Virus record (IMG/VR): IMGVR_UViG_2778261382_000003
Reading direction: 5' to 3' (one strand)
Length of the DNA stretch: 18,906 bases
DNA from: a virus
Lineage: Duplodnaviria; Heunggongvirae; Uroviricota; Caudoviricetes
Every line of letters starts with the position of its first letter. Within the stretch, counting starts at the first letter, position 1. The translations under genes and the position numbers were made by a program. Positions 13-18,906 of the stretch are shown piece by piece. The notes under the pieces were generated by a model. That model worked only from the letters and a program-made list of their open reading frames with translations. It was not told the origin of the DNA and did no database searches.

Positions 13-291
13 TCAGCTCCATTCCCGAAGCGGTGTTTCCAGCTCCACGACATAATCAGAGAATACAGAAACATCAAACAAGTCATCAAGAATGCGAATG
101 TTGACAAAATAACCATCATTCCGGATACAGACAGGTTCTCCCTCTTCTGTTACCCCTGTTTCTGTGTAGGTGAAACCAATTTCATCAACTAACAGTTTAT
201 TCTGGAGGTCTTCATCTTCCGCCCAGCCAAGAGATGACAGGAAGGCCTTAAACTGCAGTTTGTCATGAAACTTCAAAGTTAAATCTTTCAT
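13..291 (-). CDS. Hypothetical small acidic protein (92 aa) immediately downstream of the tail fibre gene; possible tail-fibre accessory protein, but not a recognisable lambda Tfa
   Basis: Complete ORF. Its ATG (289-291) overlaps the tail fibre stop (288-290) in an ATGA arrangement, implying translational coupling. No recognisable family motif. Confidence 0.5.
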   Translation of the reverse strand: MKDLTLKFHDKLQFKAFLSSLGWAEDEDLQNKLLVDEIGFTYTETGVTEEGEPVCIRNDGYFVNIRILDDLFDVSVFSDYVVELETPLREWS

Positions 292-2249
292 ACGACCTCT
301 TTTAATTGCCTGTCATTTAATTCTTTATGCCATATGCGGAAATTGCGAATATGGCCAAACAGATGTCGTTCTCCAGTGTTCGTCTGCCCTCCAAATCGGA
401 TATTTTTATCAGCGGTCACGCCATTATATTCACAATAAACTTTATTAACCGCTTTACCATTTGTCACCACATGAAAGTGACCATCAGCTTTTGCAATACA
501 TCCAAATGTGGTTTTCTCTGCAAATACATCTGTCGCTGCGCTATTAACATACGAGCCTGAAGGGTTTGACAGACTCATATATAACTTACCACTACCTCTG
601 TTGATTGCTGCAATTGCTGATTGCCCGGTATTGGCTGCTGCTATATCCCACACGCGGGGTGCGGCGTTTGGTGCAATATCCCAGTTTTTATGAATCTCAA
701 GTAAAAAAGTAAATGGTAACTTATAAAGATTATTTCTGGTGGGGATACTAACCAAATCACTGGCTCTTGTCGTTGCGCTGCCTCCTGAAATAATAAATGA
801 TGATACACACGGCCCATTCTCTACTTGTGGGGTGGCAAGATAAATATAGTCACCAGATACTGTTGCCCCACCCTGCTCAGGAGAATACTGTATCTGAGAG
901 CCTATTTTTAACTCACCATCAATTGCCTGAATCGTTGCCTCTGCAAAAATCCAGCCTGTGGTCTTATCCTTCCTGACTCGTGCCGTAATTCTGCCGGCAG
1001 CCCCACCTGTCATATTAATTTCAAGCGTTTGCGTATCAATGTACGCATCGCCAAGAAAAGTTGTTGCACTACCATCATACTTATCAAACCGTATACGTAA
1101 CCTTACCTGTCGTTCTGTTTTAAAACGGCATGAGGTTGTCACGTACTTGTTATCGCCTGAGACATCAACTGACTTTGTTGCAGCAATTGATGCCATATTA
1201 ATAGCCGAAGTTTGCCCAACCAGAGAATCGTTGCAGACAAACTTTCCATAAGTAAAACCAAAACTATCTGTCCCGGTTTCGGGCACATCCATGTTTGATG
1301 ACTTCCCCCAGCTGGCTGGACTTTCCGAATTGAGCATGTAGTTCGTTCTTTGTCCCTCAATAAGCAGGCCATCACACTCAAATCGCGGCTCATTAATTTC
1401 CGCCGTTTTCAGTTCGCCAGATTTGTTGATATATGTTGCCGTTGATGCGCGACTGAAATTAACCTGTTTATCACTGGCGACCTGAACCACATCGTCACCA
1501 ATAGCTATTTTTTTATAGCCCGGAGAAAAACCCGCAATCATATCCAGTGAATCGTTAAACGGTATCCACACATCAGGCAGCGGCGGCACTATATTCGCAT
1601 AGGGCTCTGCAGTCACTTCCGCTGCGACTTCTGCGCGGTCTGCCGCCTTTTCAGCCCGTGTCGCTGCCGACAGAGCCTCATCCTTTTTCTGCCCGGCCTT
1701 TGTTGCGTCTGCTGCGGCCTCCCGCGCTTTTGTGGTGGCGACTCCGGCATTTTCAGCGGCTGACTCTGCATTACGGCGGGAAGCCTCTTCACTGTCTGCG
1801 GAGGCTTCTTCTGACGCACGGGCATTTGTCTCTGAACGTTCTGCCGCTGTTGCTGCGTTTTGTGCGGCTGTTTTTGAAGAAGCTGCCGCTTTCGCGCTGT
1901 TACCTGCATTCGTCTCTGATGTTTTCGCCGCATTCCTGGACGATGCCGCTGCTGTTTCTGATTTCTTTGCTGCCGCTGCGCTCTGAGAGGCGGCTTCAGC
2001 GTTGCGTGCCACCTCTTCCACCATCTTTTCAAAACGATACAGTGCCTCCGGACGAACATCATCTTCTGTTGCAGCGCCCAGAAAATCATTCAGCGTCCCC
2101 GGCTTAGAATCCTCATACACGGTGATGGTCCCGGCATGTGAAGGCGGAAAACCTTCAACCAGCAGGATAACGCTGTACTGGCCATACTCGACATCCATGC
2201 TGTAACGTCCGGCTTCATCCGGATTTTCTGAGGCCACCGTGTTCACCAC
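288..2249 (-). CDS. stf: Side tail fibre protein (lambda Stf-like N-terminus, Ala/Ser/Thr-rich repetitive shaft, divergent C-terminal receptor-binding domain)
   Basis: N-terminal region (VNTVASENPDEAGRYSMDVEYGQYSVILLVEGFPPSHAGTITVYEDS) matches the lambda side tail fibre N-terminus from memory. Low-complexity shaft follows. C-terminus ends ...GERHLFGHIRNFRIWHKELNDRQLKE, resembling the end of LamG/concanavalin-like jelly-roll domains. The annotated start is GTG; the frame stays open upstream to about 2330 (..KPIQNCTIQLKAKRNSTTVV) without an ATG, so the true N-terminus is uncertain or truncated. Confidence 0.85.
   Translation of the reverse strand: MVNTVASENPDEAGRYSMDVEYGQYSVILLVEGFPPSHAGTITVYEDSKPGTLNDFLGAATEDDVRPEALYRFEKMVEEVARNAEAASQSAAAAKKSETAAASSRNAAKTSETNAGNSAKAAASSKTAAQNAATAAERSETNARASEEASADSEEASRRNAESAAENAGVATTKAREAAADATKAGQKKDEALSAATRAEKAADRAEVAAEVTAEPYANIVPPLPDVWIPFNDSLDMIAGFSPGYKKIAIGDDVVQVASDKQVNFSRASTATYINKSGELKTAEINEPRFECDGLLIEGQRTNYMLNSESPASWGKSSNMDVPETGTDSFGFTYGKFVCNDSLVGQTSAINMASIAATKSVDVSGDNKYVTTSCRFKTERQVRLRIRFDKYDGSATTFLGDAYIDTQTLEINMTGGAAGRITARVRKDKTTGWIFAEATIQAIDGELKIGSQIQYSPEQGGATVSGDYIYLATPQVENGPCVSSFIISGGSATTRASDLVSIPTRNNLYKLPFTFLLEIHKNWDIAPNAAPRVWDIAAANTGQSAIAAINRGSGKLYMSLSNPSGSYVNSAATDVFAEKTTFGCIAKADGHFHVVTNGKAVNKVYCEYNGVTADKNIRFGGQTNTGERHLFGHIRNFRIWHKELNDRQLKEVV
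1610..2000. repeat. Degenerate Ala/Ser/Thr/Glu-rich tandem codon repeats inside the tail fibre gene
   Basis: Translation is low-complexity (AAASSRNAAKTSETNAGNSAKAAASSKTAAQNAATAAERSETNARASEEAS...). The repetitive GC-rich DNA keeps several antisense and alternate-frame ORFs open in the six-frame track. Confidence 0.55.
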
Positions 2250-9829: not shown

Positions 9830-9951
9830 GGATGCAAAAAATCGCAGGTGCATCTCTGCATCTGTGAAGGGAGAAGAGAGTTTGGATTGTATGTGCGCAT
9901 AAACGTCCCCGTTTAGCGCAGAAGTCACCGGAGTTGTTCAAGCTCCAATGG
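9830..9951. repeat. Direct repeat copy A (~120 bp), immediately upstream of ybcN
   Basis: 9830-9934 aligns to 11764-11868 with 7 mismatches in 105 bp; weaker similarity continues to 9951/11885. Contains an imperfect hairpin (gcgcataaacg tccc cgtttagcgc, plus-strand orientation) and an A/T run. On the minus strand it encodes a 35-aa ORF from GTG at 9926-9928. Confidence 0.85.
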
Positions 9952-9996
9952 CATGATTATGGCTGGTTGATTATTGGAAATCAAATGTGCTGAAAA

Positions 9997-10506
9997 TTAG
10001 TCTGCCAAGTCTTCCTCAGTCGCAACTGGGTAATTCCAAATATCAAAAAAAGCTATAGCCTCCTGCCATTTGCTCCATAAGTTATCAAGTACTTGTGTAG
10101 GTTCCGTACTTTTAAAAACAGAATCAGCCGCATCACCGTTATGAACTTCCTCGTACAGTTCCATTATTAGCAGATTAACAAAGTACTGTTTCAACATTAA
10201 TGCCTGATTACCTTCTTTCTGCTGGCTATCCTGCTTGATGATCTCCATCGCCCGTACTAGGCACCTGATGATATCCGCTGCATCATTAACGCTCCATTCA
10301 GATCCGCGCTTATCTTTAGCTGATGAATTGGCTCTCTCAGCGCAAGCCTTTAAAGACTCATAAAGGTAAACTCTATTATGTAGCTGCAGCGCTTTTTTTG
10401 ACGTGTACCAACTTGCAAGCGCCGACCCCGCTGCGGCTAATGTGCCAAACGCAGAAATGCCTGCTGCTATTGCACTTAAGTCGGCACTGTCAAAGTTCCA
10501 CATCAT
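9997..10506 (-). CDS. Hypothetical membrane-anchored protein (169 aa, one N-terminal TM helix)
   Basis: ATG ATG start at 10501-10506 with SD (aaggtg). N-terminus SADLSAIAAGISAFGTLAAAGSALASWY is hydrophobic. Own AT-rich promoter region upstream (10507-10680). No family recognised. Confidence 0.6.
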   Translation of the reverse strand: MMWNFDSADLSAIAAGISAFGTLAAAGSALASWYTSKKALQLHNRVYLYESLKACAERANSSAKDKRGSEWSVNDAADIIRCLVRAMEIIKQDSQQKEGNQALMLKQYFVNLLIMELYEEVHNGDAADSVFKSTEPTQVLDNLWSKWQEAIAFFDIWNYPVATEEDLAD

Positions 10507-10680
10507 CGTTACACCTTATATAAACACCCCTCAGTAATATCCAATAAGGTATGTGAACAATCAATATAATTTATATCCGTATCGGCACATAGCGATTTTA
10601 ATGCTACTGATAATGGTATCTTTTAGATTATATCGTCCAGTTCCAGTACCCGTATTTTATGAAATGGACTCGCACATTAC

Positions 10681-10722
10681 CAAAAAAAATGCCAGCACTT
10701 CCGTCATCGCAGAATGCTGGCA
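10681..10722 (-). terminator. Putative rho-independent terminator (minus strand) after the Bro-N gene
   Basis: Stem gccagca / tgctggc (10691-10697 and 10715-10721). On the minus strand it is followed by eight T (plus-strand A-run 10682-10689). Confidence 0.5.
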
Positions 10723-10741
10723 GTATTTCTAACTAGTGACT

Positions 10742-11350
10742 TTATTGCAACAGATTCTGACGGAAATATGGTAACACACGACTCCACTTATCATCCTGCC
10801 ACGGTTGGAATTTTACATGCGCCGTTTCTCTGGCAAGGATTTCTCGCGCCCTGTTGAGTATCCGAGGATATTCTTGTTCGATTGAAGTGAATCTACCTGC
10901 TTCGCGATGCTCTGCGACCTGAAGAAGGGGCGTAACGTTCTGGCAGGCGGTTAACATCGTATCACTTGCTCGCCATAACCAGGCGAGTGTGCAAAGTTCG
11001 TTATCAGTGAATTGTTTTGTGATTGGGGATTGTTGAACTTCTCGATCGAGAATATCCAGAACCCAGCGGCGGAATTCTTTGGCCACAGGAGTACGAGCAA
11101 ACATGGCGATCAAATGGGCTCCGCGAAGGCTAAATACTCGAGACTCCTGCATTCCACGAGGGGTGGTCACTTTGACCACCCTTGTCATCATATCTGTGAA
11201 TTCATCTGAGTGCCGAGAGTAAATGCGCTGAACTGCTTTATCGTCCGCATATTCCAGTGCTAAACCAACTTCAGTGGCAGTAAGCCAAATTCTGTTATTG
11301 TGGCAAATCGGGGTAAACGTCGTTTTGTGGAATGCTAATTGAGTAGTCAT
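10742..11350 (-). CDS. Bro-N domain protein (prophage antirepressor-like), 202 aa
   Basis: N-terminal region FTPICHNNRIWLTATEVGLALEYAD...VFSLRGAHLIAMFARTPVAKEFRRWVLDILDREV matches the Bro-N / KilA-N-like pattern (..AkeFr.Wv...) from memory. Flanked by its own promoter region and terminator. Confidence 0.7.
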   Translation of the reverse strand: MTTQLAFHKTTFTPICHNNRIWLTATEVGLALEYADDKAVQRIYSRHSDEFTDMMTRVVKVTTPRGMQESRVFSLRGAHLIAMFARTPVAKEFRRWVLDILDREVQQSPITKQFTDNELCTLAWLWRASDTMLTACQNVTPLLQVAEHREAGRFTSIEQEYPRILNRAREILARETAHVKFQPWQDDKWSRVLPYFRQNLLQ

Positions 11351-11505
11351 AGTATCACCTCATCAGGTTAACCATCACCACCAACGACGCCAATCGACTG
11401 GTGGTGAACTGTGTAAGGTTGGCGTAACCGGCTACTCAAACCCGGCGCTTCCGAAGAAGCCCTCACACAGCCCACCATAATTTGGGCATAGCCGTGCTTA
11501 GCGCA

Positions 11506-11527
11506 CAAAAAAACCGCTTAACGCGGT
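11506..11527 (-). terminator. Putative small rho-independent terminator (minus strand)
   Basis: Minus strand: accgc-gttaa-gcggt followed by seven T (plus-strand a7 at 11507-11513). Lies about 90 bp downstream of the 82-aa ORF. Confidence 0.4.
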
Positions 11528-11613
11528 ATGCGTTGAGTAGTATCCCGGGACGCCAATCCCGTGTGCCGATTTTGCGGCAACGCACAGAATATAGCGCCGG
11601 ATAAATCATGTCG

Positions 11614-11981: not shown

Positions 11982-12941
11982 TCAGCTAATTGCAAAGATA
12001 TTAAAAATAACTTTAGGGAGTGCGAAAGATGAAATAAAAAGCACAACCATAAAAATGGCATGCTTAATAAATGATGAGCTTGTAAAAAAAGCTCCTCCCT
12101 TGCTAATTCCTGCCATAAAAACAAAGATAAAGCTAATTAAGCACGACCATATCACTAACAAAACTGAGATTGACATGCTTAAAGACATATCGCGAGAAAA
12201 TACGTTTACTGAAATAGAAATGAAAGTAAAGAAAGAAGCAAATAAAGCAATGACACCCAGCATTGAGTTCCTTGCTGTAATTACTTCCGATTCAAAGCTT
12301 TTAACTTTCTCATGTATATCTTTTTCAGCATTTGATAATGTTGCATCAAATTGCTCAATCTTTGCAGTTTGCTGAGATAATGAAGACATTACCTTACCTA
12401 TTTTTCTTTTAGTATCATTAATATTCTTTTTGCTCTTATTCAACTCTTGCGAAAAATTGGTTAGTTGATCATTGATATTTTTCCAGAGGATGTTATCAAT
12501 ATCACTTTTTGTATATTTTTTTACATTCTCTTTATTAAAAGAAATTGTAGATTCAGAATTATTATTAACAAAGTAATTAGATAAAATGGCATTAGAGACA
12601 GTATTATCCATCACCGGCACAGTTGCTTTTGAACTGTATTTTATAGCTTCATGCAACATTTCTTTTTCATTAACAAAAAGAGAGGTTTTTATTAATTTTT
12701 GTGGTGCCGCGTCTTTGATGGATATACTTTCCCGCTCTTTATTTGAAGCTGTTGCAGTTTTATTATCTATCTGCAAATTACTAATTTTTTGTACCCCTCC
12801 TGTATACGTAGATGTACTATTCGATACTTGTGAATTAGAATAAAGTGAATGATGCGCAGTTCTTTTTGCCATGTCATCGTTGACTATAGCATTATTTTTT
12901 GCAGTTCTTTTTATATCCTTTTTATTATCATCCTTATTCAT
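11982..12941 (-). CDS. Hypothetical protein, 319 aa: low-complexity Ser/Thr/Asn-rich N-terminus, predicted helical / coiled-coil middle, about three C-terminal transmembrane helices; candidate membrane effector of a defence / exclusion module
   Basis: ATG at 12939-12941 with good SD (gaggtgg), 14 nt after the stop of the upstream gene. C-terminal hydrophobic segments MLGVIALFASFFTFISISVNVF, ISVLLVIWSCLISFIFVFMAGI, AIFMVVLFISSFALPKVIFNIFAI. About 27-30 percent GC against about 50 percent in flanking phage genes. Confidence 0.7.
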   Translation of the reverse strand: MNKDDNKKDIKRTAKNNAIVNDDMAKRTAHHSLYSNSQVSNSTSTYTGGVQKISNLQIDNKTATASNKERESISIKDAAPQKLIKTSLFVNEKEMLHEAIKYSSKATVPVMDNTVSNAILSNYFVNNNSESTISFNKENVKKYTKSDIDNILWKNINDQLTNFSQELNKSKKNINDTKRKIGKVMSSLSQQTAKIEQFDATLSNAEKDIHEKVKSFESEVITARNSMLGVIALFASFFTFISISVNVFSRDMSLSMSISVLLVIWSCLISFIFVFMAGISKGGAFFTSSSFIKHAIFMVVLFISSFALPKVIFNIFAIS

Positions 12942-12955
12942 TCAGCCACCTCACA

Positions 12956-13621
12956 TTACTGAATTTCATTCACTTTACTTAAAAAGGCTTTTTTTGTTTT
13001 TTCTGCGGTATATTTATCTTTAAATATAAAACTCTCGATTGTATTCACATCGATCTGTTTCACTAGCATTGGTTGTTCTCTGACAATATCATATCCTGAC
13101 ATAATCGACAAATGACAATTAAATATGGACTGCTCAAACTCGAATTTTTTATTATACATTAAATTAATATCTTCAATTATTTCGCTATCATTCTGCATGT
13201 TGTTACTAAGATAGTTTTTAACAATCTCTTTGTTTGGGTTGTTGTTTAATTCCGCCTTAACGGCCACCAAGCCTATTCTGATAATATCCTTATTGAGTTC
13301 TTTATGGATATCAACCACACTATCGAAAACTTCTTGAAACAAATGTAAGTCTACCTCTTGCTCAGAATCCATACGTTCAAAAAACAAATCACATCTCTGC
13401 AGTGAGCATTGAACTCTAAATTTATTATCTATAGAAAACAATTGGAGACGAGGAATCTCTGGTGGGGTATCCATAGGTAAAACGCCCAACATCATATTGT
13501 TTGTTAATTCAATACCTGCCTTCTTTTTAAAAGTTTGCCTAATAAAATACGACATTCCATCGAAATCGACAGTCGTTGATGAATCGTAAAAAAATACCAT
13601 TTGTAACTGTATGATTTTCAT
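12956..13621 (-). CDS. Hypothetical soluble protein, 221 aa; first gene of the AT-rich two-gene operon (candidate sensor / partner)
   Basis: ATG at 13619-13621, 152 bp after the P stop with an AT-rich promoter-like region between. Very AT-rich codon usage. No recognised motif. Confidence 0.7.
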   Translation of the reverse strand: MKIIQLQMVFFYDSSTTVDFDGMSYFIRQTFKKKAGIELTNNMMLGVLPMDTPPEIPRLQLFSIDNKFRVQCSLQRCDLFFERMDSEQEVDLHLFQEVFDSVVDIHKELNKDIIRIGLVAVKAELNNNPNKEIVKNYLSNNMQNDSEIIEDINLMYNKKFEFEQSIFNCHLSIMSGYDIVREQPMLVKQIDVNTIESFIFKDKYTAEKTKKAFLSKVNEIQ

Positions 13622-13773: not shown

Positions 13774-14496
13774 TTATTTCGAAATCTTTTTATATAATGC
13801 TTTTCCCCCTTTCAGCCCAAACTTAGCTTTGATTTCTGCGATCTTCGCCAGAGCCTGTGCACGATTTAGAGGCCTACCGCCCATGACAGGAAGTTGTTTT
13901 ACTGGTTCAGGTATCGCCTCACCACGGTTAATTCGCGCGGTCATACAGGTCAGCTCATCGGCAGCCTTGCGCCGTAATTCCGCGTCAGTCAACGCATTGG
14001 CCCGCATGTTCTGATACAGGTTGGTAACCAGCCAGTAGTGCGCGTTTGATTTCCACGGATAAGACTCTGCATCCGGATACAGCCCGCGCTTCCGGCAATA
14101 CTCGTAAACCATATCAACCAGCTCGCTGGCGTTTGGCAGCCCGGCGGTAACGGATGCTTCTTCCCGGCACCAGGCGACAAACTGCCCGGGTGATGGCAGG
14201 AATGGTCGATTCTGCCGACGGGCTACGCGCATTCCAGCGTTAACCTGTTCCATTGTGGTGATCCCGTTTTCCCGAAAAGCCAGCACCCACTGGCGGCGGA
14301 TTTCGTTCAGTTCATTCTGGTCACAGTTAGCCAGGCTCGCCGGGAAAGTTGCCAGTAACTGGCTGAACACACCGTTGATGATCTGCGCTACCTGCTGTAC
14401 CTGCGGCTTTTCGTCGTACTGTTCCGGCATGTTGTTGGCGATCCGACGCATCTGCTCACGGTCAAAGTTAACCATCTGTGCGGCGATGTTTTTCAT
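13774..14496 (-). CDS. P: Replication protein P (lambda P-like DnaB helicase loader)
   Basis: MKNIAAQMVNFDREQMRRIANNMPEQYDEKPQVQQVAQIINGVFSQ... is near-identical to lambda P over most of its length. ATG (14494-14496) overlaps the O stop (ATGA). The last ~10 residues (..KFGLKGGKALYKKISK) differ from lambda P as I recall it (..KFGLKGASV). Confidence 0.9.
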   Translation of the reverse strand: MKNIAAQMVNFDREQMRRIANNMPEQYDEKPQVQQVAQIINGVFSQLLATFPASLANCDQNELNEIRRQWVLAFRENGITTMEQVNAGMRVARRQNRPFLPSPGQFVAWCREEASVTAGLPNASELVDMVYEYCRKRGLYPDAESYPWKSNAHYWLVTNLYQNMRANALTDAELRRKAADELTCMTARINRGEAIPEPVKQLPVMGGRPLNRAQALAKIAEIKAKFGLKGGKALYKKISK

Positions 14497-15422
14497 AAAT
14501 CCACCCCGCAAATCCAGTCAGTGTTTGTCAGGTCGAGTTTTGGTTTTCTGGCTATCATGCCTGCCTGTTGCTTGTTACGGTTGATTTCGAGTTGGGTCCA
14601 CTTGTCGCGGAGTTTGGCCGGACTTAGCACGTTACCGGACCAGAAGTTGTCCTGGCATGCCCAGCGGAACAGCACGCACATGTCGCGGTGGTTACGTCCG
14701 TCACGTTCACGCATCAGGCGGATATCGTTAGCCCACCCTGCAAAATTCGGTTTTCTGGCTGATGGCGCGATGGTCTTCACCATGTCAAACATCCACTCTG
14801 CGGCGGTCAGGTCTTCTGCTGTCCCCCACTTGCTGCCGCTCTGAATTGCAGCATCCGGTTTCACCACAGGAAGATCGTTTTCTGGTTGGTCAGAGGATTC
14901 GCCAGAATTCTCGGACGAAAAAGGTTTTATATTGTCTTTTGTTAGTTTGTCTTTTGTGTTTACCTGATTCGGGTAAACGCCTTTACCTGATTTGGGTAAA
15001 CTTTTTTTACCTGATTCAGGTAAATTTACCTCTTTCAGGTAAACTTTATTTTTCTTACCTGATTCGGGTAATGTTGACCATTCACTGACCACATTATTAA
15101 TGCCGGTATTCCGCCCGCTCTGAATAAAAATCCCACGCTTTACCAGAACACTTTTTGCAGCAGAACACTTGTGCGGCAATATCCCGGTTAATTCGGAAAG
15201 TTGCTCGTTGCTAACCCAATCCAGTTTTTTATTAAAGCCATATGTTTTGCGCATGACAGCCAGAAAGACCAGAAGCTGGTGCTGTGTTAATCCGGCCAGC
15301 ATCACAGCTTCCAGCAACTCATTTGCAATGCGCGTATAACCATCATCGAGATCTGCCACGCGCGGCTCCTTTTGTGCCGCATCCGGCACTGGAAAATTGA
15401 ATATCTCAGCAGTGTTTGCCAT
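14493..15422 (-). CDS. O: Replication initiator O (lambda O-like; divergent N-terminal iteron-binding domain, lambda-like C-terminal domain)
   Basis: Start at ATG 15420-15422 with strong SD (gggagga); the track ORF starts farther upstream. The C-terminal two-thirds (..LPESGKKNKVYLKEVNLPESGKKSLPKSGKGVYPNQ...WTQLEINRNKQQAG..KPKLDLTNTDWI.GVDL) is essentially lambda O from memory; the N-terminal ~110 aa are clearly different. Confidence 0.9.
   Translation of the reverse strand: MANTAEIFNFPVPDAAQKEPRVADLDDGYTRIANELLEAVMLAGLTQHQLLVFLAVMRKTYGFNKKLDWVSNEQLSELTGILPHKCSAAKSVLVKRGIFIQSGRNTGINNVVSEWSTLPESGKKNKVYLKEVNLPESGKKSLPKSGKGVYPNQVNTKDKLTKDNIKPFSSENSGESSDQPENDLPVVKPDAAIQSGSKWGTAEDLTAAEWMFDMVKTIAPSARKPNFAGWANDIRLMRERDGRNHRDMCVLFRWACQDNFWSGNVLSPAKLRDKWTQLEINRNKQQAGMIARKPKLDLTNTDWICGVDL
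14960..15071. repeat. Origin of replication iterons (ori) inside the O gene
   Basis: Five copies of a 17-bp inverted-repeat unit ttacc-N7-ggtaa (ttacctgattcgggtaa at 14960 and 15055, variants at 14983, 15007, 15026). AT-rich stretch adjacent at about 14900-14959. They encode the O linker, as the lambda ori does. Confidence 0.75.
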
Positions 15423-15508
15423 AATTCCTCCCGCAATGAGTGTGTTACGATTTGCACCTGAAAGTCGGTTCTGTTCCAGCAGACCGGCTTTCGCCATTTC
15501 TGAACCTG

Positions 15509-15931
15509 TCATATCGCCCCCAGCATGGTAGTAACCATCGCCATCAATGGACCAGCCAGATCCGGGTCCACACGAAACATCGACACAATACCTTCACTAA
15601 TTTCCTTCAATTTCTGGTGGCGTGGTGCGTTGAGAATGACAGCCTGTTTTGCCTCACTGAGTTCCTTTTCCATTTCAGCCAACCTAGCCATGAAGCTATC
15701 CTGCTCAACCAGGTGGCCGCGATATTCCAGCGGTAGTACCGCCAGAATTGCCGGGGTCAGTTCACGCACGTTATTTCGGTATTTTTCAGAATCGAATTTG
15801 TTATCGAGGAAGCGGAACAGCTTCTGGCGTGCCCGACTGACATCATCAGGAAAATCGATGGTGACGCCGCCCTGTGCTCGATACTCATTCACAATGAGTG
15901 CGGCAACGACATCCTGATTAGGCGCGATCAC
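15509..15931 (-). CDS. Hypothetical protein in the cII position (about 141 aa; possibly a YdaT/CII-like regulator)
   Basis: The track ORF (15509-16051) begins at a GTG that would overlap the divergent gene at 16046. The internal GTG at 15929-15931 with SD (ggag) is the more plausible start. No lambda CII similarity; the YdaT-like suggestion comes from position and length only. Confidence 0.45.
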   Translation of the reverse strand: MIAPNQDVVAALIVNEYRAQGGVTIDFPDDVSRARQKLFRFLDNKFDSEKYRNNVRELTPAILAVLPLEYRGHLVEQDSFMARLAEMEKELSEAKQAVILNAPRHQKLKEISEGIVSMFRVDPDLAGPLMAMVTTMLGAI

Positions 15932-16045
15932 TTTCGTCCACTCCGTTACAAAGCGAGGCTGGGTATTTCCCGGCCTTTCTGTTATCAGAAATCCACTGAA
16001 AGCACAGCGGCTGGCTGAGAAGATAAATAATAAACGGGAGGCGGT

Positions 16046-16237
16046 ATGCACAAAGCATCTCCTGTTGAGTTAAGAACGAGTATTGAGATGGCACATAGCC
16101 TTGCTCAAATTGGAGTCAGGTTTGTGCCAATACCAGTAGAAACAGACGAAGAATTTCATACGTTAGCCACATCCCTTTCACAAAAGCTGGAAATGATGGT
16201 GGCGAAAGCAGAAGCAGATGAGAGAGACCAGGTATGA
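16046..16237 (+). CDS. Hypothetical small protein (63 aa), first gene of the leftward early operon remnant
   Basis: ATG at 16046 with strong SD (gggagg, 6 nt upstream). No HTH evident, so not obviously a repressor. Confidence 0.5.
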   Translation: MHKASPVELRTSIEMAHSLAQIGVRFVPIPVETDEEFHTLATSLSQKLEMMVAKAEADERDQV

Positions 16238-16247
16238 CAACCACTGA

Positions 16248-16529
16248 ATGCATTTTTCTGGCAGCGGGCTTCATATTCTGTGTGCTTATGCTTGCCGACA
16301 TGGGGCTTGTTCAGTGACACCTCAGCAAGAAAACGCCCTTCGCAGCATTGCCCGTCAGGCTAATTCTGAAATCAAAAAAGCCAGACAGCAGTTTCCGGAT
16401 AAAAACGTCGATGACATTTGCCGTAGCGTACTGAAGAAGCACCGCGAAACAGTAACGCTGATGGGATTCACACCGACTCATTTAAGCCTAGCGATCGGCA
16501 TGTTAAACGGCGTCTTTAAGGAACGGTGA
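16248..16529 (+). CDS. Hypothetical protein (93-aa ORF; alternatively a 27-aa hydrophobic peptide at 16234-16317 plus a 72-aa protein from GTG 16314)
   Basis: The ATG at 16248 has no SD. An ATG at 16234 overlaps the upstream stop (ATGA) and opens a 27-codon ORF, MTTTECIFLAAGFIFCVLMLADMGLVQ, whose stop overlaps an in-frame GTG (GTGA) of the downstream frame. The gene model is ambiguous. Confidence 0.4.
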   Translation: MHFSGSGLHILCAYACRHGACSVTPQQENALRSIARQANSEIKKARQQFPDKNVDDICRSVLKKHRETVTLMGFTPTHLSLAIGMLNGVFKER

Positions 16530-16550
16530 ACATGAAAAGCAAAATCATCA

Positions 16551-16576
16551 GGGAGCTACAGGCTCCTTTTTTATTG
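16551..16576 (+). terminator. Putative rho-independent terminator (plus strand)
   Basis: Stem ggagc / gctcc with loop tacag, followed by ttttttatt. Confidence 0.4.
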
Positions 16577-16627
16577 TTCGCATTCACCCTCAAGCGTATT
16601 AACCAACAGTTCAGGGATTAATGAAAG

Positions 16628-16849
16628 ATGGCAGACATCATTGATTCAGCATCAGAAATAGAAGAATTACAGCGCAACACAGCAATAAAAATGCGCCGCC
16701 TGAACTACCTGGCTGTATCTGCCACTCATTGTTGTGAGTGTGGCGATCCGATAGATGAACGAAGACGACTGGCCGTTCAGGGTTGTCGGACTTGCGCCAG
16801 TTGCCAGCAAGATCTGGAGCTTATCCGCAAACAAAGGGGGATGAAGTGA
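16628..16849 (+). CDS. TraR/DksA-family C4-type zinc-finger protein (73 aa)
   Basis: Four Cys as CxxC-(17)-CxxC (CCECGDPIDERRRLAVQGCRTCASC) in a ~70-aa protein, the typical phage TraR-like architecture. Confidence 0.7.
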   Translation: MADIIDSASEIEELQRNTAIKMRRLNYLAVSATHCCECGDPIDERRRLAVQGCRTCASCQQDLELIRKQRGMK

Positions 16850-17181
16850 TGGCTAACCTGCAACTTGCTGTTAAAAGTGAATACTTCGATGCCATGATTC
16901 GCGGAGAGAAAACGGAAGAGTATCGCTTGTGTAATGACTACTGGAATAAGCGAATTATGTTCCGGGAATATGACCGCCTGATTATCACAAAGGGATATCC
17001 GAAGCGCGACGATTCCAGTCGCAGAATTGATGTTCCGTATGACGGATATGAAGTGAAGACAATCACACATCCGCACTTTGGCGATAAACCGGTAAAGGTG
17101 TTCGCTATAAAGGTGAATATCACCACTGAATATCAATCCGCACAACACAAGGTCAAGAATGTTCAGAGTGATTTACCCTAA
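16849..17181 (+). CDS. ASCH-like domain protein (110 aa)
   Basis: ATG at 16849-16851 overlaps the upstream stop. N-terminus LQLAVKSEYFDAMIRGEKTEEYR resembles the start of ASCH/PUA-like domains; assignment from motif memory only. Confidence 0.5.
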   Translation: MANLQLAVKSEYFDAMIRGEKTEEYRLCNDYWNKRIMFREYDRLIITKGYPKRDDSSRRIDVPYDGYEVKTITHPHFGDKPVKVFAIKVNITTEYQSAQHKVKNVQSDLP

Positions 17182-17398
17182 CACCTGGTACGTCGACCAC
17201 CACGGCACTCCCTGCAAAATCCTGCGTTCTACCCATAACAAAGTTCACTACATCCGAAAAGGCAGAACATGTATCGCCAGCATGTTCCGCTTTAATCATG
17301 ACTTTGAACCTGTGAATAAAGCTGATGCAGATCGGATAGCAGAAGAGATCGAAACGGCAGAACACATTAAGAAGTTACGTGCCATACGCAGGAAATAG
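17159..17398 (+). CDS. Hypothetical small basic protein (79 aa)
   Basis: ATG at 17159 with SD (aagg). Overlaps the previous gene by 23 nt in another frame. Family unknown. Confidence 0.45.
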   Translation: MFRVIYPNTWYVDHHGTPCKILRSTHNKVHYIRKGRTCIASMFRFNHDFEPVNKADADRIAEEIETAEHIKKLRAIRRK

Positions 17399-17537
17399 AA
17401 AAATTGATAAATTCAATACTGCATTTCTCAGCATTAAATTTATCTCTATGACCAGTCATGAGATGTACCTGCCATGAGCTTAATATCATGTCAGATATAT
17501 CGGTCACAAACTCCCTCAGCAGCTAAGAGGAGGACAA

Positions 17538-17774
17538 ATGTCTCGACTAATCACTTTACAGGACTGGGCTAAAGAAGAATTTGGGGACTTAGCACCAAGT
17601 GAGCGAGTTCTGAAAAAATACGCGCAAGGGAAAATGATGGCCCCACCAGCTATAAAAGTTGGTCGCTACTGGATGATTGACCGAAATTCCCGTTTTGTAG
17701 GAACGCTTGCAGAACCGCAACTCCCAATAAACGCAAACCCAAAACTCCAACGGATAATCGCTGATGGCTGCTAG
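17538..17774 (+). CDS. xis: Putative excisionase
   Basis: 78-aa protein directly upstream of int with a 11-nt overlap. Very strong SD (taagaggagg). Call is by position and size; no strong sequence match to lambda Xis. Confidence 0.6.
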   Translation: MSRLITLQDWAKEEFGDLAPSERVLKKYAQGKMMAPPAIKVGRYWMIDRNSRFVGTLAEPQLPINANPKLQRIIADGC

Positions 17775-18906
17775 ACCCCGATCTCACAAAATCTCTATAC
17801 CCAATTTATATTGCAAATTAGATAAGCGAACCGGAAAGGTATATTGGCAATACAAACATCCACTATCCGGTCGTTTTCATAGCTTAGGAACTGATGAGAA
17901 TGAAGCAAAACAAGTTGCTACTGAAGCAAATACCATTATTGCTGAACAACGTACCCGACAAATATTAAGCGTCAATGAGCGTCTGGAAAGAATGAAAGGC
18001 AGGCGCTCAGACATTACGGTGACAGAATGGCTTGATAAATATATTTCTATCCAGGAGGACAGGCTGCAACATAATGAACTAAGACCCAACTCCTATCGGC
18101 AAAAAGGCAAACCCATTCGTCTTTTCCGTGAGCATTGTGGAATGCAACACCTCAAGGATATTACCGCACTTGATATTGCCGAAATAATTGATGCTGTAAA
18201 GGCTGAAGGTCATAACAGGATGGCGCAAGTCGTGAGAATGGTGTTAATCGACGTCTTCAAAGAAGCACAACACGCAGGACATGTTCCGCCAGGATTTAAC
18301 CCAGCGCAGGCAACAAAACAACCGCGAAATCGAGTAAACCGCCAAAGATTATCACTGCCCGAATGGCAGGCAATATTTGACAGCGTAAGCAGACGGCAGC
18401 CCTATTTAAAATGCGGGATGCTACTTGCTCTTGTCACTGGACAACGTTTAGGCGATATCTGCAATTTGAAATTCTCTGATATCTGGGACGACATGTTGCA
18501 CATTACTCAGGAAAAAACCGGTTCAAAACTTGCTATTCCGCTTAACCTGAAATGCGATGCTCTGAATATTACCCTTCGTGAAGTTATATCTCAGTGCAGG
18601 GATGCTGTTGTTAGTAAATATCTGGTCCATTACCGTCACACAACCTCTCAAGCAAACAGAGGAGACCAGGTTTCTGCGAATACTCTGACAACGGCTTTTA
18701 AAAAGGCCAGGGAAAAATGTGGCATAAAATGGGAGCAAGGAACTGCGCCCACATTTCATGAGCAGCGATCTCTGTCAGAACGGTTATATCGGGAACAGGG
18801 TCTGGATACGCAAAAGTTGTTAGGCCATAAATCCAGAAAAATGACCGACCGATACAATGATGATCGTGGTAAAGACTGGATTATCGTAGATATCAAAACA
18901 GCATAG
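17764..18906 (+). CDS. int: Lambda-family tyrosine integrase
   Basis: 380 aa. N-terminal arm-binding-like region (RPRSHKISIPNLYCKLDKRTGKVYWQYKHPLSG) and C-terminal catalytic motifs (..LALVTGQRLGDICNLKFSDI.., ..FHEQRSLSERLY.., ..LLGHKSRKMTDRYNDDRG..) align with lambda Int from memory. Complete ORF ending at the last base of the window. Confidence 0.9.
   Translation: MAARPRSHKISIPNLYCKLDKRTGKVYWQYKHPLSGRFHSLGTDENEAKQVATEANTIIAEQRTRQILSVNERLERMKGRRSDITVTEWLDKYISIQEDRLQHNELRPNSYRQKGKPIRLFREHCGMQHLKDITALDIAEIIDAVKAEGHNRMAQVVRMVLIDVFKEAQHAGHVPPGFNPAQATKQPRNRVNRQRLSLPEWQAIFDSVSRRQPYLKCGMLLALVTGQRLGDICNLKFSDIWDDMLHITQEKTGSKLAIPLNLKCDALNITLREVISQCRDAVVSKYLVHYRHTTSQANRGDQVSANTLTTAFKKAREKCGIKWEQGTAPTFHEQRSLSERLYREQGLDTQKLLGHKSRKMTDRYNDDRGKDWIIVDIKTA

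Follow-up and report, generated by a model that had tools for sequence, protein, structure and literature searches.

The window analysed here is the whole 18,906-nt stretch of IMG/VR virus record IMGVR_UViG_2778261382_000003 (Caudoviricetes), the int-proximal 18.9 kb of a lambdoid prophage. We examined positions 15,423–16,529, where a minus-strand remnant of the gene ydaT abuts a series of small plus-strand genes that begins with a remnant of lambda orf60a. An original prediction, made from the letters alone, had described this region as a divergent promoter region lacking recognisable immunity genes, with a 141-aa protein on one side and small genes on the other. The layout of open reading frames (ORFs) that it gave was confirmed, with a minus-strand ORF reading from a GTG at 15931 to 15509, a 63-codon ORF at 16046–16237, a 27-codon ORF at 16234–16317, and the ATGA and GTGA overlaps between neighbours. 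It was also right that equivalents of cI, cro, N, exo, bet and gam are missing; none was found anywhere in the window (Pfam, Prokaryotic Genome Annotation Pipeline (PGAP)). The identities assigned to the individual elements changed upon profile searches, which returned no bona fide repressor among these ORFs and identified the 141-aa protein as YdaT and the 63-aa protein as lambda Orf63.

The minus-strand ORF, said to have no obvious helix-turn-helix (HTH), encodes a truncated YdaT_toxin protein. Positions 15509–15920 (minus strand) hold the 3' 411 nt of ydaT, corresponding to the C-terminal 136 codons of a 179-codon gene in the cII position (PF06254, PGAP). The match to PF06254 has E=2.9e-30 and spans profile positions 1–90 of 92 (Pfam). 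The YdaT family is HTH-containing: its solved member, from CP-933P, is a POU-like DNA binder with a tetramerisation helix and is the equivalent of CII (PMC9986795). The ydaT remnant lacks the first 43 of 179 residues, the start codon, the ribosome-binding site (RBS) and helix alpha1 of the POU-like DNA-binding domain; by alignment, deleted residues 28–43 correspond to the first helix and next loop of PDB 8bt1, its first ordered residues. A complete POU-like HTH with helix alpha1 and its own start codon is thus not present. The 179-aa form is intact in four related loci (L004, L005, L010 and L110). PGAP independently tags ydaT of an identical genome as "incomplete; missing N-terminus", which supports reading the region as a deletion scar. 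The same minus-strand frame can be read from GTG 15931 (140 aa) and stays open to GTG 16051 (180 aa). GTG 15931 lies beyond the end of ydaT sequence, in antisense orf60a DNA, and the first four codons from there read VIAP; the frame is open across the joint up to 16051 by chance. As in the YdaS/YdaT modules of Rac and CP-933P, the ORF carries a YdaT_toxin domain and stands directly upstream of O in the cII position. It differs from CP-933P YdaT in being distantly related (E=0.002), derived from the 179-aa form and shorter by the N-terminal 43 residues, and from both modules in that the ydaS/cro-like partner gene and the ydaS-ydaT operator region have been lost.

On the plus strand, positions 15921–16073 contain lambda orf60a (DUF1317) from nucleotide 29 onwards, without its ATG. 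The remnant matches PF07026 at profile positions 13–60 of 60 (E=1.5e-26, Pfam), positions 1–12 having been lost, and we compared it with the intact 60-aa copy in L110. It has no ATG, GTG or TTG start, and PGAP resorts to an ATC at 15927. A full-length Orf60a whose start overlaps the exo stop was not found, and exo itself is absent. The 114 bp at 15932–16045 that had been taken for a divergent intergenic region are therefore the 3' part of orf60a coding sequence, and a consensus scan detected no sigma-70-like promoter in them on either strand. The 63-codon gene that follows (16046–16237, plus strand) is an intact homologue of lambda orf63 (DUF1382; PF07131, E=7.7e-31, positions 1–60 of 60), and its product matches lambda Orf63 (PDB 8dsb) with E=7.4e-33 over 62 residues. 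The strong RBS attributed to this gene is real, a GGGAGG Shine-Dalgarno sequence, but it is just the usual RBS of orf63, which every relative also has within the 3' end of orf60a.

We placed the joint between the two remnants at nucleotide level by comparison with four intact relatives. Three-way alignment and BLAST end points located it at window positions 15919–15920 (a feature with no strand), at a TA dinucleotide common to both parental sequences. To the left the sequence is that of ydaT in the intact relatives (...ACATCCTGATTA/TCTGCAG..., the slash marking the boundary), and to the right it is that of orf60a (...ATATCCGGGTA/GGCGCGATCAC...). Window positions 13808–15920 correspond to L110 6775–8887 and window positions 15919–18906 to L110 14202–17189, with 5316 bp gone; this is the shortfall relative to the Ecol_244 prophage, which has the same icd site and an identical integrase protein (WP_000741335.1). 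In Ecol_244, AR_0077, E9 and RM14723, the missing interval comprises the first 43 codons of the 179-codon ydaT, a 75–76-aa cro-like HTH gene, a divergent 229–230-aa XRE/S24 CI-type repressor, none, one or two hypothetical genes, the genes kil, gam, bet and exo, and orf60a up to its nucleotide 28. The prophages of AR_0077 and Ecol_244 are intact and occupy the same icd site as the window prophage.

We then searched 5426 complete E. coli genomes with positions 15300–16700 (megablast). The arrangement across the joint was present in only five of them, whereas more than 3000 others matched solely from window position 15919 rightward, and more than 2000 matched the left part with matches that stop at 15920. 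Identity with the window is 100% in E. coli CEA601S and in three New Zealand isolates. An assembly or chimera artefact at the joint would have to recur identically in five independently assembled complete genomes from differing sources and in a viral-collection contig (L239); we found no point in its support and consider its probability negligible. Taken together, the comparisons of sequence leave little doubt that one deletion, about 5.3 kb in size, struck a phage-21-type lambdoid prophage at icd and left this region as its scar. The original prediction had itself named a simple deletion scar as the finding that would overturn it, and this is what mapping the joint against intact relatives revealed.

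The deletion accounts for the missing immunity genes. Neither a divergent repressor with a cro-like gene nor an operator/promoter region between such genes was found in the window, and Pfam returned no repressor-type domain in the ORFs of 15300–17800 or in the window's other sizeable ORFs; the repressor and cro-like genes of the relatives fall exactly inside the deleted interval. The event brought codon 44 of ydaT (rightward operon) next to nucleotide 29 of orf60a, which opens the exo-xis block of the leftward operon, with the crossover at the shared TA. In lambda-type phages, pR and pL lie in the interval between these two points. Judging from this architecture, the deleted interval would also have held the pR and pL equivalents, the operators and any N-like function. 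O, P, the nin genes and Q would then be left without an early promoter and Q would not be made; late transcription would terminate and the lysis genes would stay silent. The exo-xis accessory genes, xis and int would likewise have lost pL, with the CII-like activator for int truncated, and the prophage would be predicted neither to be induced nor to replicate, locked in place. Without an early promoter for O, P, Q and the lysis genes, the prophage would have no need of a repressor. Of the three alternatives that had been offered for the missing repressor, crippled rightward transcription was right in effect, while a small regulator hidden among these ORFs and the premise of a divergent promoter were wrong.

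Several points weigh against so complete a silencing. The positions of pR and pL in the relatives follow only from those of the divergent cI/cro genes, and weak or fortuitous promoters, or read-through, for instance from the minus-strand icd that faces the prophage, may feed either operon. Moreover, the 180-aa chimeric ORF at 15509–16051 is open across the joint and has GGAG upstream of GTG 15931, and given any transcript, a truncated YdaT with the whole Pfam region and the tetramerisation helix could be made.

We also weighed whether the region could serve as a compact, unconventional immunity system, with one of the small proteins (truncated YdaT, Orf63, the 27-aa peptide or Orf61) acting as repressor of divergent promoters in 15932–16045. 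The ORF layout does appear divergent, YdaT family members are genuine HTH DNA binders (PMC9986795), and Orf61 homologues have been modelled as homeodomain-like (PMC8614690). Yet the supposed intergenic stretch is orf60a coding sequence with no promoter-like site, YdaT is missing helix alpha1 and its own start, and lambda, 434 and 21 carry the same small genes downstream of exo, beside a normal cI/cro pair. With the arrangement present in only 5 of 5426 genomes as well, we judge such a system to be extremely improbable. Control from elsewhere could be exerted in trans by the repressor of a co-resident prophage, as the host genomes contain a number of other lambdoid prophages (each genome matches at several places), or by an RNA-controlled module in place of CI immunity. 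Rfam placed a C4 antisense RNA (11397–11482, 74.8 bits) and the Hfq-binding RNA isrK (11507–11579, 58.7 bits), both on the minus strand, upstream of a Bro-N/P22AR_C antirepressor-like gene (10742–11350, minus strand). Against this, the operators for any trans-acting repressor would lie inside the deleted interval, and the intact relative L004 has a P22AR-type gene plus its own cI/cro pair, indicating that the P22AR-type module adds to CI immunity rather than substituting for it. We regard control from elsewhere as very unlikely. In its own right, the C4/isrK and antirepressor-like arrangement (10742–11579) resembles an antirepressor module under RNA control. It sits in the nin region of a prophage left with no repressor to counteract.

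The deletion-scar reading fits the prophage as a whole. In an identical genome (L009, NZ_CP195804.1 2804085–2827862), the prophage, bounded by a duplicated icd fragment on one side and icd on the other, is only about 23.6 kb long. Apart from tail-fibre remnants, it has no genes for terminase, head or tail. Its cargo comprises sitABCD, iss and an OmpC-like porin; this observation on size and cargo also concerns window positions 288–2249. The prophage is a 23.6-kb domesticated, decayed remnant, and the deletion joining ydaT to orf60a cannot have been its only large one. AR_0077, Ecol_244 (both icd prophages) and coliphage 21 share with it the integrase/excisionase module beside icd, the O and P genes, and an exo-xis block (orf60a, orf63, orf61, TraR-like, ASCH and DUF4222 genes) that is 98.7–99.5% identical. 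They differ in keeping a full ydaT, the cro-like gene, the CI-type S24 repressor, kil, gam, bet, exo and the start of orf60a, and AR_0077 also keeps the terminase, head and tail genes that the window prophage has lost.

The cryptic prophage DLP12 of E. coli K-12, at its exoD-xisD-intD end, is likewise a defective lambdoid prophage trimmed by deletion, with a joint at the same TA of orf60a (566059–566087, ...CCGGGTA/CCTCAC...) and another joint (between P'/ren and exo') that also crosses at TA. DLP12 keeps the left side of the TA (exo' and nucleotides 1–28 of orf60a) and has lost the exo-xis block, whereas the window keeps the right side; DLP12 also sits at argU and carries an integrase other than the window's. 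The TA at nucleotides 27–28 of orf60a (window 15919–15920; ...ATCCGGG-TA-GGCGCGATC...) proved to be a nucleotide-precise joint with at least 11 left and 2 right partners, in the window, L001, L113, L121, L147, L154, L163, L165, L237, L238, L230–L235 and K-12 566059–566087. In the TKEC21-59 prophage at argU, a different deletion fuses the interior of a cro-like gene to orf60a, and it too has this TA as its right end. Scanning the viral collection for the pattern TA/GGCGCGATCAC... recovered many unrelated left flanks, located in the interior of O, in the interior of ninB/ybcN, near rusA and ybcO, in a replication-gene C-terminus, a moron region, a tail-fibre gene and Mu-like baseplate genes. The left half (...CCGGGTA/) was found joined to two right partners, the interior of intD and a point about 94 nt upstream of intD, the latter being the arrangement in DLP12 of K-12 MG1655. 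Apart from one IS629 insertion six nucleotides away, the visible 28 nt upstream of the TA contained no further junction positions.

The prophages with this joint differ in sequence background, integrase and attachment site (icd, argU, the lambda site next to ybhC, and a P4-like integrase). Descent of the deleted copies from one ancestor was rejected: each is nearer to an undeleted haplotype than to the other deleted copies, which indicates that the deletions are independent. Wherever the partner's parental sequence is known, it also has TA at the crossover. Comparing all loci with four intact references, we catalogued 14 distinct clean deletion joints with both parents known, all of which cross at TA, the shared bases being TA (7), TAG (2), TTA (1), GGTA (2) and, in three, 8–9-nt overlaps containing TA. 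Half of them (7 of 14) have neither end in orf60a. Another recurrent end is an ori iteron (ATTCGGGTA/): it supplies one side of both GGTA joints and is identical at 8 of 9 positions to the orf60a 9-mer (ATCCGGGTA/). Many loci were retrieved with patterns anchored at the orf60a TA site; this ascertainment leaves unexplained the seven joints outside orf60a and the missing neighbouring junction positions.

No mobile element was seen occupying the orf60a TA in the viral and metagenome collections, and the site has no hairpin or inverted repeat. A mosaic boundary in viable phages was tried and rejected, the boundary there being the exo stop. No description of the recurrent joint was found in the searchable literature, and we know of no convincing match between the site and insertion sequence (IS) ends, dif, REP, cos, the integron core or invertase sites, comparisons that serve as leads only. 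We tentatively propose, at somewhat less than an even chance, that the orf60a TA is a two-sided hot spot of TA-by-TA joining that repeatedly truncates and locks E. coli lambdoid prophages. Such a pattern would point to a specific enzymatic activity, with a 2-nt staggered exchange or TA-terminated ends, rather than to random illegitimate recombination. A 2-nt staggered exchange fits the geometry, since one TA is kept, both halves of the site are usable and just 2–3 nt of identity are involved. Exchange of this kind is made by serine recombinases at quasi-sites and by Tc1/IS630-type elements. The geometry would equally suit the joining of TA-terminated ends. Candidates are accordingly a serine-recombinase-like activity at quasi-sites, a Tc1/IS630-like activity, or priming from a defined 3' end; a link between the TA joints and half-sites of the O protein is speculation.

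Other rearrangements were observed near these sites. L160 carries a 1310-bp insertion in orf60a (about 9883–11192) with an ATC target duplication, six nucleotides to the left of the recurrent TA; its right end reads as what we take to be an IS629/IS3-family terminus. The same locus has a 707-bp gam/bet deletion crossing at TTA. In TKEC21-59 (L001 3001–3008), a 353-bp deletion in the O/iteron region runs across an 8-nt repeat (CGCCTTTA), and the O gene is split.

We next considered the 27-codon ORF (16234–16317, plus strand; MTTTECIFLAAGFIFCVLMLADMGLVQ), which had been suggested as a small membrane peptide of the Kil or Hok kind. It fills the spacer between orf63 and orf61 exactly, with ATGA and (A/G)TGA overlaps, and encodes a 16-residue hydrophobic core (CIFLAAGFIFCVLMLA). 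Lambda, 434 and 21 all have the ORF intact, as do nearly all of about 200 loci; the exceptions are ATA for ATG in two loci and the loss of the last codon to a premature stop in one. Across 84 haplotypes it shows 28 distinct changes, 14 synonymous and 14 non-synonymous, 16 of which fall at third codon positions. The synonymous fraction is 0.50, as compared with a random expectation of 0.23 and with 0.37 and 0.33 in the other two frames; the flanking genes give 0.39 (orf63) and 0.46 (orf61). All copies are at least 95% identical in DNA, making this a shallow test of low power; the viral collection gave near-identical orf63 loci, and species-representative genomes gave almost only contaminating lambda DNA. 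No insertions or deletions occur in the spacer among 44 haplotypes.

These features suggest that the ORF may be a translated, translationally coupled micro-gene, the evidence from sequence being modest. We put a real, translated small membrane peptide of the lambda exo-xis region at somewhat less than even odds. The third-position bias, on par with that of orf63 and orf61 and above the other two frames, the indel-free and exact fit from the orf63 stop to the orf61 start, its presence in lambda, 434 and 21, and the hydrophobic core all speak for translation. The near-identity of the copies, the ATA starts and the premature stop speak against it, as do the lack of any Pfam family at E<=0.01 and its omission by PGAP and by the annotators of phages 21 and 434; some public records call it a "hypothetical protein". 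In addition, for lambda and phi24B the orf61 described in the literature uses a different reading frame of this DNA (PMC8614690). The stronger form of the idea, a toxin like Hok or Kil, drew no support beyond hydrophobicity: no Hok-like antisense RNA or fold-back mRNA was seen, no Rfam antisense RNA lies at this position in the window, and nothing ties the peptide to Kil. Lambda kil is positioned between gam and cIII/N. The kil-type gene of the relatives ("phage encoded cell division inhibitor") belongs to the deleted interval, whereas the 27-aa ORF lies between orf63 and orf61, and identity with lambda Kil was rejected, as neither homology nor position fits. Equating the orf63, 27-aa and 72-aa trio with ydfA-ydfB-ydfC of Qin was also rejected, K-12 YdfB and YdfC being unrelated in sequence, and no DicF or other small RNA was found at 16530–16620.

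Downstream, orf61 (16314–16529, plus strand; PGAP) is a full-length homologue of 71 aa that is annotated in phages 21 and 434. Its start is GTG in the window (16314) and ATG in 28 of 44 haplotypes, so that a start codon is kept either way, and always overlaps the TGA of the 27-codon ORF. Lambda's own Orf61 has been described as truncated relative to that of Stx phages (PMC8614690). One haplotype, of length 485 and consistent with lambda, has a 1-nt insertion downstream of the orf61 start, near 16374, which fits the published truncation. A terminator-like hairpin followed by a T run (16550–16568, plus strand; consensus scan only) separates orf61 from the TraR-like gene. A 31-codon ORF (16526–16621) overlaps the hairpin; in phages 21 and 434 it has 29 codons and is named "putative secreted protein". 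Fragments of this region are called "cell division protein ZapA" in some public records, which looks like annotation drift.

The remaining plus-strand genes are a TraR/DksA zinc-finger gene in the lambda orf73 position (16628–16849; PF01258, E=6.5e-9; PGAP), an ASCH-domain gene (16849–17181; PGAP), a DUF4222 gene (17159–17398; PGAP, PF13973), an excisionase gene (17538–17774) and a phage-21-type tyrosine integrase gene (17764–18906), with PF07825, PF09003 and PF00589 matched across these last two genes. In identical genomes, int adjoins icd just past the window end. The block from orf60a through orf63, orf61, TraR-like, ASCH and DUF4222 to xis and int is that of phage 21, with phage 434 sharing it from orf60a through the TraR-like gene; the orf63–orf61 DNA is 97% identical to lambda. 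The Wegrzyn and Donaldson groups have studied the same block as the "exo-xis region" (PMC8614690, PMC6213356, PMC10869804). The window shares its genes, order and overlaps with the lambda exo-xis region and differs in that orf60a is truncated, the block is cut from pL, and orf61 is full-length where lambda's is truncated. Thus orf63, the 27-codon ORF, orf61 and the TraR-like, ASCH and DUF4222 genes are ordinary, highly conserved lambda exo-xis accessory genes, not an immunity module. Lambda-like orf63 loci (94% protein identity to the window Orf63) were also seen on low-coverage contigs of Shewanella, Bradyrhizobium, Paenibacillus and Kitasatospora (L093–L106); in these unrelated organisms they are almost certainly lambda DNA contaminating the assemblies.

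On the minus strand, the genes for replication proteins O (14493–15512; PF04492 Phage_rep_O, E=1.1e-33) and P (13774–14511; PF06992 Phage_lambda_P, E=4.4e-61; PGAP "replication protein P") follow the ydaT remnant. Direct reading of the sequence locates ori iterons (TTACC-N7-GGTAA) within O at about 14955–15075. Between P and ninB stand genes of 221, 319 and 169 aa (12956–13621, 11982–12941 and 9997–10506, all on the minus strand), for which no Pfam match above threshold and no PADLOC family was found. Their place is taken in relatives by ren, by emrE and ybcK, by an AAA ATPase pair, or by an inverse autotransporter.

A deletion scar in a cryptic prophage is an ordinary find of an already understood kind, and a prophage that has lost its early promoters can be expected to have no repressor. 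The case shows how a deletion joint, read from raw sequence, can be taken for a regulatory region. The 27-codon ORF is a possible unannotated gene inside the much-studied lambda exo-xis region. If the recurrent TA joint reflects a defined activity, the domestication of prophages would be partly programmed, or enzyme-driven, rather than a matter of random decay.

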